DNA of 64,000 bases, taken from the NCBI GenBank assembly GCA_963840455.1, contig CAWIYV010000009.1, forward strand, positions 352,001-416,000, read 5' to 3'. The position numbers and the translations under genes were made by a program. The notes beneath the pieces are model-generated. The model was given only the letters and a program-made list of their open reading frames with translations. It made no database searches and was not told the DNA's origin. Below are positions 34,371 to 38,632 of this stretch, piece after piece (position 1 is the first letter of the stretch; each line of letters begins with the position of its first letter). The DNA comes from Nitrospirota bacterium. Its GTDB lineage: Bacteria; Nitrospirota; UBA9217.

Positions 34371-35261
34371 ATGGACCTCCATCAGATCGAGATATTCTGC
34401 GCCATCGTCCGACACCAGAGCTTCTCCCGCGCCGCCGAAACGCTCTTCCTCACTCAGCCGACGGTGAGCGGCCACATGAAGAACCTCGAGGCCGAGCTTG
34501 GCGTGAAGCTGCTCGACCGCTTGGGCAAGCGGGCCATCCCCACCGAAGCGGGCGATATCCTCTTCCGGCACGGCACGCGGCTGCTCGAAGAGCGTGACCG
34601 GGCAAAGCAGGAGATCGAGCAGCTCACCGGCCGGATCAGCGGCGTCCTGACCATCGGCGGGAGCACCATCCCCGGCGCCTACCTGCTGCCGCCGCTCATC
34701 GGTACGTTCAAGAAGAAGAACCCGGGCATCTCGGTCCATCTGAGCATTGACGACACTGCGAAGATCACCGAGGCCGTTCTGGCCGGCAGCATCCGCATCG
34801 GTGTCGTCGGAGCCCGGCTCTCGGACCCGCAGCTCGAGGTCCATCCTTTTGAGTCCGACGAACTGGTCATCGCGGTGCCCGCACGCCATCCCTGGGCCAG
34901 GAAACGGACGGTCGCACCGCGGGAACTGAAGGGACAGCCATTCATCCTGCGCGAGCAGGGCTCGGGCACCCGCAAGATCATGGAGGACCGCCTGGAGAAG
35001 GCGGGCGTCTCGATCGCCGACCTTGCCATCGAGGCCGTCGTCGGGAGCAGCGACGCGGTCCGGCAGGCGGTCAAGGCCGGGCTCGGCATTTCGATCCTGT
35101 CCCTCCGCGCCCTTGCCGATGACATCGAGGCGGGCCGCCTCGCCGCGGTCCGTGTCGCGGGCGTCAGGATGGAACGGCACTTCTACGTAATCCTGCTCAA
35201 GGGCAGGGCTCGCTCGCCCCTCTCCAAGGCGTTCCTCGATTTCATCCTCAAAAAGGTCTGA
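34371..35261 (+). CDS. Selenium-metabolism-associated LysR family regulator
   Basis: HTH SFSRAAETLFLTQPTVSGH; IGGSTIPGAY; REQGSGTR. Confidence 0.88.
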   Translation: MDLHQIEIFCAIVRHQSFSRAAETLFLTQPTVSGHMKNLEAELGVKLLDRLGKRAIPTEAGDILFRHGTRLLEERDRAKQEIEQLTGRISGVLTIGGSTIPGAYLLPPLIGTFKKKNPGISVHLSIDDTAKITEAVLAGSIRIGVVGARLSDPQLEVHPFESDELVIAVPARHPWARKRTVAPRELKGQPFILREQGSGTRKIMEDRLEKAGVSIADLAIEAVVGSSDAVRQAVKAGLGISILSLRALADDIEAGRLAAVRVAGVRMERHFYVILLKGRARSPLSKAFLDFILKKV

Positions 35262-35412: not shown

Positions 35413-36156
35413 ATGCAATTCGCGCGAAAACTGCTCTTCATCGCACTGTTCATATCGGTTTTTGTTCCCGTCACGACGCCCTCGGCAGAAAAGGAGTTCC
35501 GCGTCATCGCGACCGAGGAGCTCAAGGCTATGCTGGACGGGAAGAAGGACTTCGTCCTCGTGGACACGCGCACGGCCGAAGAGTATTAGGAGGCGCACAT
35601 CAAGGGAGCGATGAGCATCCCGGAAAAGAGCTTCGAGAACCAGCTCGCCCTTCTGCCGGCGGACAAGAACGCCCTGATCGTGCTGTACTGCAACGGCGTC
35701 AAGTGCGGCAAGAGCAGGAAGTCGGCAAAGAAGGCCGAGGCAGCAGGGTACATGAACCTGGTCATCTACGCCGAGGGATTCCCTGTCTGGGAGGAAAAGG
35801 GCTTTGCCATCGTTGCCGGGCCGGAGCACGCGAAGAAGATCGAGACCGCGAAGGTGAAGACCTACCGAGCTCAAGCAGCTCCTGGATACGAAGTAGCGCG
35901 AACATCGTGATCGTGGACGTACGGGACGAGGCGGAGTTCAGGGAAGGGCACATCCCCACGTCGATCAACATCCCCGTCGAGACCTTCGCGCTCCGCTCCG
36001 AGGTCCTACCGAAGGAGAAAGAAGATCATCGTGTACTGCAACACCGGCGGCAGGAGCTACAACGCCTACCGGAAGCTGATGAAGCTCGCTTATCCGAGCA
36101 TCGCTCAGGCGACCTTTGCTGAGTGGAAGGAAGCGGGCATGCCCGTCGAGAAGTAG
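35413..36156 (+). pseudogene. Exported double-domain rhodanese (in-frame TAG at 35587 plus ~3 indels; pseudogene or sequencing errors)
   Basis: Signal peptide; LVDTRTAEEY*EAHIKGA; YCNGVKCGKS; second domain IVDVRDEAEFREGHIP..YCNTGGRS recoverable by frame shifts. Confidence 0.75.
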
Positions 36157-36174
36157 ACAGGGGAACGATCGTAG

Positions 36175-36701
36175 ATGTCCGACGAAATTTCATCGATCAG
36201 AAAGGTATATCGCGATCCCTCTTCGATCGGACCCTGGGAGAGGTGCGTTCCCGAGGGCGGCTAGGCACCGTGGTAGCCGGAAAGGCCGATGCATTTAATC
36301 GGGTCCTCACCGGCCGCACCAGCGGCCAGGGACGGGACAGGTTCCGCTTCACCCGGAAGGGGGAGTATCGCATCAAGAACTGCCGGAAAGTGGACCTTGG
36401 ATGCGGCTACCGCATTGTCTGCATCCAGAAGGATCACCGTCTCGTCCTGCTGTTCATCGGCACGCACGACGACTGTTTCCGGTGGATCGAGCGTCACCGT
36501 ACGGCAGAGTATGACCTTGACGGCGTGCCCGAGGAGGCATGGACGGCCGTTATCGCCGATCGTCCGGCCGAGCGGCCGCGCCGGGAATTGGAGCACGACG
36601 AGGAGTGTCTTGCCGAGGAATATGAAGAGTCGCTCATGGACAAGATCGATGACGGGGTCCTGCGGAAAGTATTCGCCGGCATCGTCAATGGACGAACGTG
36701 A
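36175..36701 (+). CDS. Hypothetical protein with RelE/YafQ-like motif (likely 1-nt indel near 36218)
   Basis: KVDLGCGYRIV..LLFIGTHDDCFRW; ATG 36175 gives MSDEISSIRKVYRDP, which joins the main frame if a C is added to the CCC run. Confidence 0.55.
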
Positions 36702-36755
36702 TCAAGGAACGGTAACGATGAGCGAACGAAAATTTGCTTGAAAGGAGATCAGACC

Positions 36756-37388
36756 ATGAAACATACATTCACGCTGGGGGCGAGCACCATCCCGGGAGAG
36801 TTCATCATTCCCCGGCTGCTGTCAGCCATGATCAAGCACCTGCCGGAGATCGAGCTCAAGGTGGAGATCTCGGACAGCCTGAAGGTGTTTGAGGGGGTGC
36901 GGAAAGGACAGCACGAGATCGGAATTATCGGGACGCGGTTCGATTCGCCGGAGGTCGACTTCGCGGTCATGGTCAAGGACGACCGGCTGGTGCTGATCAC
37001 ACCGAAGAACCATCCGCTTGCAGCGAAACAAAACGTAGCCTTGAGCGACCTCAAAGGTCAGAGCTTCGTCACCCGGGAAAAGGGCTCGGGGACGCGGGCG
37101 GCCTATGAGAAGGCGTTCAAGGACGCGGGGCTCGCGCTAGCGGACCTGAACACGGTCGCCGAGGTCGGTACCACCGAAGGGGTCATCCAGGCTGTCGAGG
37201 GCGGCGCGGGGATCGCCATTGTTTCGGAGCTGGCGGCGAAAGAGGCCATCGAGCTCGGGAAGATCAAGGCGTTGAACATTCCCCTGCTCAAGATGGTCCG
37301 GGATTTCTCGATCATTACCCGGAAAGGGACAGCGCTTTCGAAAGATGCATCGGAAGTGCTTGCCGTGATCAAGGCGGTCATGAAGTAA
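36756..37388 (+). CDS. LysR substrate-binding domain protein lacking HTH
   Basis: AAGGAG RBS; starts directly at TLGASTIPGEF; REKGSGTR; no HTH coding sequence upstream. Confidence 0.85.
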   Translation: MKHTFTLGASTIPGEFIIPRLLSAMIKHLPEIELKVEISDSLKVFEGVRKGQHEIGIIGTRFDSPEVDFAVMVKDDRLVLITPKNHPLAAKQNVALSDLKGQSFVTREKGSGTRAAYEKAFKDAGLALADLNTVAEVGTTEGVIQAVEGGAGIAIVSELAAKEAIELGKIKALNIPLLKMVRDFSIITRKGTALSKDASEVLAVIKAVMK

Positions 37389-37438
37389 CGTAGATACAGT
37401 TTGCTGAAGGAGCAGTGCTGTCAACGAGGAGACGTTAT

Positions 37439-37533
37439 GACTGGCTGTGTCGGCTGGCGCCGGCTGCAGGCTTCAATCCTGTAGGACTGCCGTGAAGGGC
37501 ATGTCATCGGTTCGATTCCGAAGTCAGTCTCCA
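37439..37533 (+). tRNA. Non-canonical tRNA-Sec-like tRNA, anticodon UCA, 8/4 fold, U73 (selC*/tRNA-ReC-like)
   Basis: Acceptor GACTGGCT/AGTCAGTC (8 bp); D-stem GTCGGC/GCCGGC + TGGC loop; AC stem TGCAGG/CCTGTA, loop CTTCAAT; long variable arm; T-stem TCGG/CCGA, loop TTCGATT; ends T-CCA. Confidence 0.85.
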
Positions 37534-37617: not shown

Positions 37618-38136
37618 ATGGAACGGGAGCATCGTGAAGAGAAGGATCGCGAGGAGCTGAGCAGGCAGGATTTCCTGAAGGTCGCGGGGATCGCCGGCCT
37701 CGGCATGGCTGGGTTGGGCGCCATGATGAGCGCGCCCGTGTCAGCGGAAGAGGCCAAGGAGGGGAAGAAGGGGAAGTATGTCATCGTCATTACCCACGGA
37801 GGCAACAATCCGAACCGTGCGATCTGGGCGCTCCTGATGGCGGAGACGATCCAGAAGAAGGGATTGGGCGATGTGCATGTCTGGATGACCATCGAAGGAG
37901 CCGACCTGAGCAAGAAGAGCGTTCCCGAGAAGATCGTTTCTCCTATATTCTCCAAGTTCGGCAATGCCATGGAGATCATGGACCGTGTGCGGAAGAACGG
38001 GTGCAAGTTCGGCGTCTGCCCTCCCTGCGCGGAGTATTTCAGCGCCAAGGGCGATGAGAAGTTCGACTGGGTGGAGCTGCAGGGCGGCGACTGGCTGATG
38101 AAGAATATCCAGGATGCCTGGGTGGTGTGGTTCTAG
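37618..38136 (+). CDS. DsrE-family protein with Tat-like signal peptide
   Basis: AAGGAGG RBS; SRQDFLK + hydrophobic + VSA cleavage site; VWMTIEGADL and VCPPC DsrE motifs. Confidence 0.75.
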   Translation: MEREHREEKDREELSRQDFLKVAGIAGLGMAGLGAMMSAPVSAEEAKEGKKGKYVIVITHGGNNPNRAIWALLMAETIQKKGLGDVHVWMTIEGADLSKKSVPEKIVSPIFSKFGNAMEIMDRVRKNGCKFGVCPPCAEYFSAKGDEKFDWVELQGGDWLMKNIQDAWVVWF

Positions 38137-38218: not shown

Positions 38219-38632
38219 ATGCATGCGGAAGGACCGAGTACCGGCTGTGGAGCACATGCAAAAGGCGCCGAGATGAGAACGAGCGATGCGGGCTGGGCAA
38301 AGAGCCTGCTGCTGATCGTGGGATCGGATGTTCTGGGCAAGGAAGAGGCCATCGGAAAGGTCCTGATGAAGGGCTTCTTCGAGACGATGAAGGTCCACAA
38401 ACAGGTACCGCACACCATCTTCTTCCTGAACGCGGGAGTGAAGCTGACCACCACGAACGAAGAAACGGTACCGCTCCTCAAGGAGATTGAGGCCATGGGC
38501 GTCGAGATCTACACCTGCGGTACCTGCCTTAAATACTACAACCTTGAGCCCTCTCTCAAGGTCGGACATCGCGGTACGACCAATCATATTGTTGAGGGAC
38601 TGCAGGACTTCGGCAAGGTCGTGTGGATCTGA
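38219..38632 (+). CDS. YedF-related selenium-metabolism sulfurtransferase, DsrE-like domain only
   Basis: IGKVLMKGFF, IFFLNAGVKL, CGTCLKYY, KVG motifs; no TusA domain. Confidence 0.75.
   Translation: MHAEGPSTGCGAHAKGAEMRTSDAGWAKSLLLIVGSDVLGKEEAIGKVLMKGFFETMKVHKQVPHTIFFLNAGVKLTTTNEETVPLLKEIEAMGVEIYTCGTCLKYYNLEPSLKVGHRGTTNHIVEGLQDFGKVVWI

Follow-up and report, generated by a model that had tools for sequence, protein, structure and literature searches.

How a bacterium equipped with the complete machinery for selenocysteine (Sec) could use a second, Sec-like tRNA, and whether its housekeeping cysteinyl-tRNA synthetase (CysRS) and a single SelB would be enough for a route that inserts cysteine (Cys) for Sec without dedicated paralogs, are the questions raised by a locus from a Nitrospirota bacterium. 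The stretch of DNA analysed here, termed the window, comprises 64,000 nucleotides (nt) of contig CAWIYV010000009.1 (assembly GCA_963840455.1, positions 352,001 to 416,000, forward strand). At 37439-37533 on the plus strand it harbours a Sec-like tRNA gene with a UCA anticodon, a fold consisting of an acceptor stem of 8 base pairs (bp) and a T stem of 4 bp (8/4), U as the discriminator base (U73) and an encoded CCA end, as documented by ARAGORN, by the Rfam family RF01852, by the predicted fold and by covariation. The gene, its fold and conservation, its co-existence with a canonical selC and the complete Sec machinery, and its link to selenium genes are direct observations. Mukai et al. (Nucleic Acids Res 2017, PMC5389517) report Sec-like tRNA-Cys species with U73 and a GCA or UCA anticodon, termed selC*. 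We regard it as fairly probable that the gene described here is a functional accessory tRNA of this selC*/tRNAReC type, which would serve a backup route based on Cys and SelB.

Read from the sequence, the cloverleaf is complete over 95 nt. The 8-bp acceptor stem is formed by 37439-37446 (5' strand) and 37522-37529, with one G-U pair; its 5' strand is followed by two linker bases, a D stem of 6 bp (one U-G) and a 4-nt loop. The anticodon UCA (37473-37475), which reads UGA, is assigned identically by sequence, ARAGORN and Rfam, recurs in 11 of 11 BLAST homologues called by ARAGORN, and is displayed in the loop CUUCAAU on a stem of 6 bp. The variable arm of 23 nt forms 7 bp with one bulged U, and the T arm (37507-37521), on which sequence, RNAfold and covariation concur, is a plain 4-bp stem (UCGG/CCGA) with the 7-nt loop UUCGAUU and without a bulge. 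The discriminator U73 is located at 37530, followed by CCA at 37531-37533.

The sequence confirms all the elements of this cloverleaf that an earlier note on the window had described, namely its length, the 8-bp acceptor stem, the 4-bp T stem, the D arm, the UCA anticodon, the long variable arm and the U-CCA end. In RNAfold, the minimum-energy and centroid structures are both exactly the 8/4 cloverleaf (-42.1 kcal/mol, z -2.9), and 2 of 200 shuffles match its folding energy. The tRNA-Sec model RF01852 matches with 52.9 bits (E 8e-08; gathering score 47), and in the alignment the ninth acceptor pair of the model is deleted on both sides, which leaves an 8/4 fold. ARAGORN reports a tRNA-SeC(tca) of 95 nt at coordinates that are one base off (37438-37532). 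Standard finders therefore label the gene as tRNA-Sec, which is one of the two outcomes that the note had anticipated.

The unusual features recur in related genomes (denoted by handles of the form G###, with G000 as the window's own genome; loci are denoted L###). BLAST retrieves the gene from the window's own genome and from 11 of 36 other genomes of its family, but from none of 24 genomes outside the family within the phylum, which amounts to 12 of 61 genomes in total. Of these 12 loci, 11 are called tRNA-SeC(tca) by ARAGORN; in each of the 11 the acceptor stem is followed by U, such that U73 is present in 11 of the 12 genome loci; the twelfth, in G019 (L165:1501-1595, minus strand), is degenerate with many broken pairs. 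G019 is also the sole genome of the family with two SelB matches. In an alignment of 13 sequences, 96.8% of the cells pair in the 8/4 structure and 10 of 32 pairs show compensatory change; in a shuffle test on the same set the observed value is reached by 0 of 500 shuffles for four of five measures, and by 49 of 500 for the fifth. The acceptor stem is paired in 100% of the cells, with compensatory change in pairs 4 and 7, while the eighth pair is formed in 13 of 13 sequences and is invariant in this set. Since related genomes are not independent samples, no statistic is given on genome counts.

A metagenome scan extends this picture. It yielded 87 stretches; 80 were retained as loci and correspond to 73 distinct rows. 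As the anticodon and a portion of the D arm were set by the search pattern, anticodon counts from this set are circular and were not used. Our own covariance model matches all 80 loci, 77 of them at full length with at least 71 bits. Across the 73 rows, 94.3% of the cells pair and 18 of 31 pairs are compensatory. Here, the eighth acceptor pair covaries (UA 48, CG 12, UG 4, GC 1, unpaired 7, gap 1), and the T stem is paired in 98.3% of the cells, with compensatory change in three of its four pairs. The first pair of the anticodon stem is unpaired in 63 of 73 rows; thus, the 6-bp anticodon stem of the note holds for the window tRNA, yet not for its family. Of the 79 rows extending to the 3' end, 78 have U73, and the pair G1:C72 is invariant in 13 of 13 alignment sequences and in 72 of 72 scored metagenome rows. 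The anticodon loop, the T loop and the GG of the D loop are conserved in the family; CCA is not encoded in 31 of the 80 metagenome rows.

Taken together, covariation over some 90 relatives supports every helix, including the eighth acceptor pair and the T stem. A 7/5 fold fits poorly, as the extra pair needed forms in 4 of 13 sequences only, and a sequencing error or mis-fold is rejected because relatives share U73 and the 4-bp T stem and show compensatory changes. Position 37530 is moreover a T without any listed difference in the assembled contigs of two DNA runs that cover it, which are possibly the window's own source. The U73 and the short T stem put forward in the earlier note are therefore real. 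No RNA run was listed for the locus, which is uninformative as to its expression.

The UCA type has a narrow distribution. In a sample of 151 genomes from the phylum, strong matches of the covariance model are confined to the window's own family (11 of 27 genomes), and matches of 40-45 bits are a canonical selC or a remnant. Within the 61-genome family sample, 19 genomes hold the UCA type. A first pattern scan of genome contigs was too loose to serve as a census: among the 80 stretches kept out of at least 120, ARAGORN calls tRNA-SeC in at least 19, mostly ordinary tRNA-Sec with G73 from other phyla, and among the matches listed only L052, L093 and L101 belong to the UCA/U73 family. The copy in G024 (L168:1501-1581, plus strand) is decayed; its anticodon arm is missing altogether, and A precedes CCA. 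A more distant metagenome subgroup of 97 nt, likewise with U73 and UCA (L208, L222, L224, L230, L256 and L260), is located between genes for a TerC-like membrane protein and a cation-diffusion-facilitator-like protein, as read from their N-terminal sequences, and not among selenium genes.

The genome carrying the window (4.03 Mb, 14 contigs, 100% complete) does not depend on this tRNA as its only selC. A canonical selC of 99 nt with G73 and a 5-bp T stem is present at G000:C1:311722-311820 (L001:1501-1599; 66.5 bits). This canonical selC shows a G-G mismatch at the eighth acceptor position, which is shared by a copy in G006 (L181), a genome with two canonical selC copies. The search for Sec machinery proposed in the note likewise retrieved single selB and selA genes, which are adjacent on C7, and selD on C14, where a single in-frame TGA occupies codon 18 in the catalytic loop. 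The same genome encodes one full-length cysS as well as an ordinary tRNA-Cys(GCA). The second selB or cysS envisaged in the note was not found: the window's genome contains no paralog of either gene. An apparent second selD paralog on C9 (94.5-bit match) was discarded, as its N-terminal motif in translation reads as ThiL.

In the 61-genome family sample, each selD match that includes the N-terminus contains one in-frame TGA, apart from G167 with two, and judged from these reading frames the whole bacterial family makes SelD as a selenoprotein. Two selD copies are present in several of the genomes with the tRNA (G005, G031, G176, G181 and G173). A correlation of the tRNA with Sec- or Cys-type selD is uninformative, since every match covering the N-terminus has the TGA. 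A SECIS search (for the hairpins that program Sec insertion) predicts a hairpin after UGA18 of the window genome's selD, which is not distinctive (z -1.6).

Based on these components, a backup route can be outlined. The tRNA would be transcribed from its selenium-metabolism gene cluster and charged with Cys by the housekeeping CysRS, which would recognise U73 and G1:C72. The 8-bp acceptor stem would then steer the tRNA to the single SelB of the cell, which would place it at SECIS-programmed UGA codons and thus insert Cys where Sec is encoded. Candidate sites include UGA18 of the genome's own selD, and as SelD is the enzyme needed to make Sec at all, the pathway might act as a backup or bootstrap route whenever Sec-tRNA-Sec is short. 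TGA is the commonest stop codon of the genome and ends 43.7% of 2872 rough open reading frames (ORFs); the cost of an unrestricted opal suppressor would hence be high, and a use restricted by SECIS and SelB is favoured. The Cys identity itself is partly supported: this second Sec-like tRNA is probably charged with Cys, given U73, G1:C72, the analogy with a sister type bearing a GCA anticodon, and published experiments on other members of the class. Among the latter, selC* tRNAs are reported to act in E. coli as suppressors of the opal codon in selD (PMC5389517), and a review describes a GCA form from D. nigrificans that inserts Cys at a Sec UGA and is delivered by SelB, not by EF-Tu (PMC11415595).

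The sister type, a Sec-shaped tRNA with U73 and a GCA anticodon, is found in 7 of the 61 family genomes (G170, G102, G176, G035, G183, G028 and G172). ARAGORN calls it tRNA-Cys in three of five genomes run (G170, G102 and G176) and makes no call in G035 and G183. Only one of the 25 genomes holding either type, G176, holds both. The GCA type adjoins a Sec-type selD and/or yedF. Because the GCA and UCA tRNAs with U73 share these neighbourhoods, and GCA is the cysteine anticodon, a cysteine identity is favoured for the UCA type; we consider this sharing the best, albeit indirect, evidence that both types have an equivalent function. In G183, a GCA-type tRNA-like stretch (L279:2191-2285, corresponding to G183:C13:54990-55084), which is 75% identical by BLAST to the G170 tRNA, lies between selD and yedF. 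One genus has a GCA type with some 57 extra bases in the variable arm and a total length of about 146 nt (L169:3997-4142, minus strand; L170:4003-4148, plus strand; G172:C74:21-166); it is located about 110 nt downstream of a Sec-type selD and is not called by ARAGORN.

A close relative of the GCA type is encoded in G285 and G305, which belong to another family of the same phylum. There, a Sec-like tRNA-Cys(GCA) of 96 nt with U73 (L274:4537-4632 and L276:4505-4600, both minus strand) lies directly upstream of a second selB, at a distance of 37 nt, and a yedF homologue follows about 1.2 kb beyond on the opposite strand. In Syntrophobacterales and Desulfobacterales, an additional selB gene termed selB* is reported to follow the selC* tRNA (PMC5389517), and the arrangement in G285 and G305 is this published selC*-selB* layout.

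The UCA type keeps steady company. In its relatives the tRNA generally lies 25-150 nt behind yedF or a Sec-type selD. In nine genomes (G010, G016, G027, G030, G031, G145, G168, G177 and G181) the tRNA is preceded on its own strand by a full-length yedF, with 25-80 nt between them; the order in G005 is yedF-selD-tRNA, and in G176 selD adjoins the tRNA. At least one of these genes is present within the fetched flanks in 17 of 20 genome loci, and YedF is found in the flanks of 23 of 80 metagenome loci, while SelB, CysS, SelA and SelD are found in none of these 80 flanks. One SelB is present in 18 of the 19 holder genomes, and none was found in G177. The steady placement by yedF or Sec-type selD and by a selenium-related LysR regulator (LysR_Sec) suggests that selenium would control the route. 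The word "yedF" is absent from the main text of PMC5389517, and among the literature matches listed none reports, by title and abstract, a link of yedF to such a tRNA. The place of the tRNA in a selenium island is not mentioned in the literature consulted; the supplement of PMC5389517 may list the subtype.

A number of points weigh against a Cys-for-Sec backup tRNA. CysRS normally reads G34, and as only the housekeeping cysS is present, that very CysRS would have to accept U34. The window tRNA has also retained the tRNA-Sec-type D arm with its 6-bp stem and 4-nt loop, which is what SelA recognises, and its acceptor/T branch of 12 bp (8/4) is without a bulge. There is no selB*, and no SelB match occurs in any flank of the tRNA, be it in genome or metagenome loci. 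The selD genes of the family all carry the TGA with the tRNA present or not, and therefore the tRNA is not needed for a Sec-type selD. A canonical selC was undetected in 6 of the 19 holder genomes (G003, G030, G168, G177, G182 and G176); these six assemblies are fragmented and 65-97% complete, and selC was likewise undetected in 8 of 42 non-holders, also fragmented metagenome-assembled genomes, such that its absence may reflect incomplete assembly or the tRNA standing in for selC. Moreover, the UCA-family model scores canonical selC at 38-51 bits and the GCA type at 30-33.5 bits. As selC scores no lower than the GCA type, homology to the experimentally tested selC* tRNAs is not established. 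Published work adds two further concerns: the UCA form that was tested has A1:U72 and needs CysRS*, which lacks the anticodon-binding domain, and allo-tRNAs with an 8/4 fold work with EF-Tu, while a long variable arm combined with G73 or U73 suits seryl-tRNA synthetase (SerRS) (both PMC5389517).

The same scores imply that the UCA type may have arisen from selC on its own, which leads to a tentative and rather speculative variant of the backup route. According to this variant, the UCA tRNA with its 8/4 fold and U73 would be a separately evolved, Sec-mimicking tRNA-Cys, derived from selC itself and not from a GCA-type selC*, which would need neither selB* nor cysS*. Transcribed together with yedF and selD under the LysR regulator, it would be charged by the ordinary CysRS despite U34, use the sole SelB and switch Sec UGA codons to Cys according to selenium supply, starting at UGA18 of selD.

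The alternative that survives best, though we judge it unlikely, is that the gene encodes a second tRNA-Sec isoacceptor. Such a tRNA would be charged with serine (Ser) by SerRS via the long variable arm, converted from Ser to Sec by SelA via the D arm and the 8-bp acceptor stem, and delivered by SelB; U73 would only tune charging or regulation. The body of the tRNA is indeed Sec-like throughout, down to the 6-bp D stem and 4-nt D loop, its score lies above the Rfam threshold for tRNA-Sec, and its neighbours are selenium genes. The six holders with undetected selC and a model in which the scores of canonical selC equal or exceed those of the GCA type can be read in the same way, as can the reported fit of a long variable arm and G73/U73 to SerRS (PMC5389517). 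However, the genome already possesses a working selC, and the tRNA family has U73 (in all but one of the 79 metagenome rows and of the 12 genome loci), whereas every canonical selC seen has G73. The sister tRNAs in the same neighbourhoods carry GCA, and published practice assigns G/A73 to SelC and U73 to tRNAReC (PMC13582414).

Quite improbable, in our view, is a general opal suppressor of the allo-tRNA type, where EF-Tu would carry the 12-bp 8/4 branch, Ser or Cys would be inserted at any UGA, and tight regulation of the selenium operon would keep the tRNA harmless. The 8/4 fold, the long D stem with its tetraloop, the long variable arm and U73 match allo-tRNAs that are reported to be compatible with EF-Tu in E. 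coli (PMC5389517), and a dedicated selB* is lacking. Yet a suppressor would face TGA as the commonest stop (43.7% of the rough ORFs), the tRNA has a fixed UCA anticodon, unlike allo-tRNAs with their varied ones, and the gene is linked to selD and yedF instead of toxin-antitoxin or transposon genes. The 8-bp acceptor stem, furthermore, is a reported determinant for SelB and against EF-Tu (PMC7609411). Finally, a tRNA that does not decode, either as a tRNA-like processing or stability element ending selenium-operon transcripts or as a decaying gene copy, is highly improbable: a position 25-80 nt behind yedF in many genomes, degenerate copies in G019 and in G024 (without the anticodon arm), the CCA missing from 31 of 80 metagenome rows and the lack of a sigma-70-like promoter or terminator found beside the tRNA would agree with it, but anticodon loop, T loop and D-loop GG are conserved, the helices are kept by compensatory change, and the window copy is intact with an encoded CCA.

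In the window, the tRNA is embedded in a cluster of genes on the plus strand, several of which are related to selenium. A selenium metabolism-associated regulator of the LysR family is encoded at 34371-35261 (NCBIfam NF040786, 306.4 bits, cut-off 250). It is followed by a tandem-rhodanese gene with a signal peptide (35413-36156; Pfam Rhodanese), which by comparison with G010 is disrupted in the assembly: it has an in-frame TAG at 35587 (CAG in G010) and frame-shifting extra bases near 35861, 35887 and 36017, while the G010 homologue is intact with about 253 amino acids. The broken gene is either a pseudogene or the product of assembly indels.

The conserved ORF at 36123-36701, the start of which is uncertain, has no assigned function and no Pfam or NCBIfam match. 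Its homologues upstream of the tRNA in relatives are 55-64% identical and often adjoin the tRNA directly (G001, G003, G033, G145, G176, G182, L191, L203, L221 and L236). An Atlas search places it in a hypothetical family that is commonest in Thermodesulfobacteriota, with a weak ParE/RelE lead (0.84-0.85). The following ORF (36738-37388), which stops 50 nt before the tRNA, encodes a LysR_Sec_metab-like protein consisting of the substrate domain only, without a helix-turn-helix (HTH) domain (NF040786, 184.4 bits, profile positions 86-297; Pfam LysR_substrate). Homologues are 91% identical in G003 and 83-89% identical in the metagenome loci L194 and L236, and therefore the HTH-less form is conserved and not a fresh truncation.

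Downstream, a gene for a DsrE-like protein (37618-38136; Pfam DsrE 21.9 bits, under the cut-off of 22.7), the N-terminus of which reads in translation like a signal peptide, begins 84 nt after the tRNA; homologues in G003 and in metagenome loci are 81-94% identical and occupy the same position. The cluster continues with a YedF-type selenium metabolism protein that comprises the C-terminal domain only (38219-38632; NCBIfam TIGR03527, 134.1 bits, cut-off 110, profile positions 81-194). A scan for sigma-70-like promoters and terminators retrieved nothing adjoining the tRNA, with overall counts near those of shuffled sequences.

Two local features stand out: the tRNA has no dedicated partners, and it is firmly tied to yedF, selD and the LysR_Sec regulator. 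If the Cys-for-Sec backup route is true, some annotated selenoproteins of this lineage may in certain conditions contain Cys at the UGA position, and selenoproteome predictions as well as comparisons of Sec- and Cys-containing enzymes would be affected.

Compared with the known classes, the tRNA resembles canonical tRNA-Sec in its UCA anticodon, 8-bp acceptor stem, 6-bp D stem with 4-nt loop, long variable arm and match to the Rfam model. It differs by U73 in place of G73 and by a T stem of 4 instead of 5 bp, which yields a branch of 12 rather than 13 bp. Such a 12-bp branch of an 8-bp acceptor and a 4-bp T stem on a tRNA-Sec body also characterises the 8/4 forms of tRNA-Sec; these, however, contain a bulged nucleotide 51a and are the organism's own tRNA-Sec, whereas the window tRNA has no bulge, carries U73 and exists beside a normal selC. 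Allo-tRNAs are reported to feature an 8/4 or 9/3 branch of 12 bp, a long D stem with a tetraloop, a long variable arm and G73 or U73; they have varied, mostly sense anticodons, occur in Clostridia, Proteobacteria and Acidobacteria, often near toxin-antitoxin genes, and are thought to accept Ser (PMC5389517). The window tRNA shares the 12-bp branch, the long D stem with tetraloop, the long variable arm and the discriminator U with the 8/4 allo-tRNAs, but UCA is fixed in its family and its neighbours are selenium genes.

The closest correspondence is with selC*/tRNAReC. These tRNAs are reported from anaerobic Firmicutes, Thermodesulfobacteria, Nitrospirae and delta-proteobacteria, always together with selA, selB, selC and selD, and the main text of the same study mentions a composite Smithella genome (PMC5389517). 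In some Desulfobacterales a truncated cysS* also follows, always with A1:U72 and UCA, and the tRNAs of delta-proteobacteria show an 8/4 fold modified by a bulged A51a (PMC5389517). A paper from 2026 assigns tRNAs with U73 and UCA or GCA to tRNAReC and those with G/A73 to SelC, and reports both anticodons (PMC13582414). Unlike selC* of Syntrophobacterales and Desulfobacterales, the window tRNA is without selB*; unlike the UCA forms of Desulfobacterales, it combines UCA with G1:C72 and has no cysS*; and unlike the delta-proteobacterial forms, its 8/4 fold is plain and lacks the bulged A51a. It also differs from described selC* by keeping the tRNA-Sec-type D arm and by its embedding in yedF/selD/LysR_Sec clusters, and the UCA type forms a sequence family distinct from the GCA type upstream of selB* in G285 and G305 (30-33.5 bits). 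Like selC*/tRNAReC, it has a Sec-like body, an 8-bp acceptor stem, a long variable arm, U73 and UCA, and it co-occurs with selA, selB, a separate canonical selC and selD in an anaerobe-type lineage. The Sec-like body, U73 and UCA are the sequence hallmarks by which the class is recognised in both publications, and the kinship suggested in the earlier note is borne out in this respect. Judged by its features, the window tRNA belongs to the published selC*/tRNAReC class, and hence to a known, yet rare, kind.

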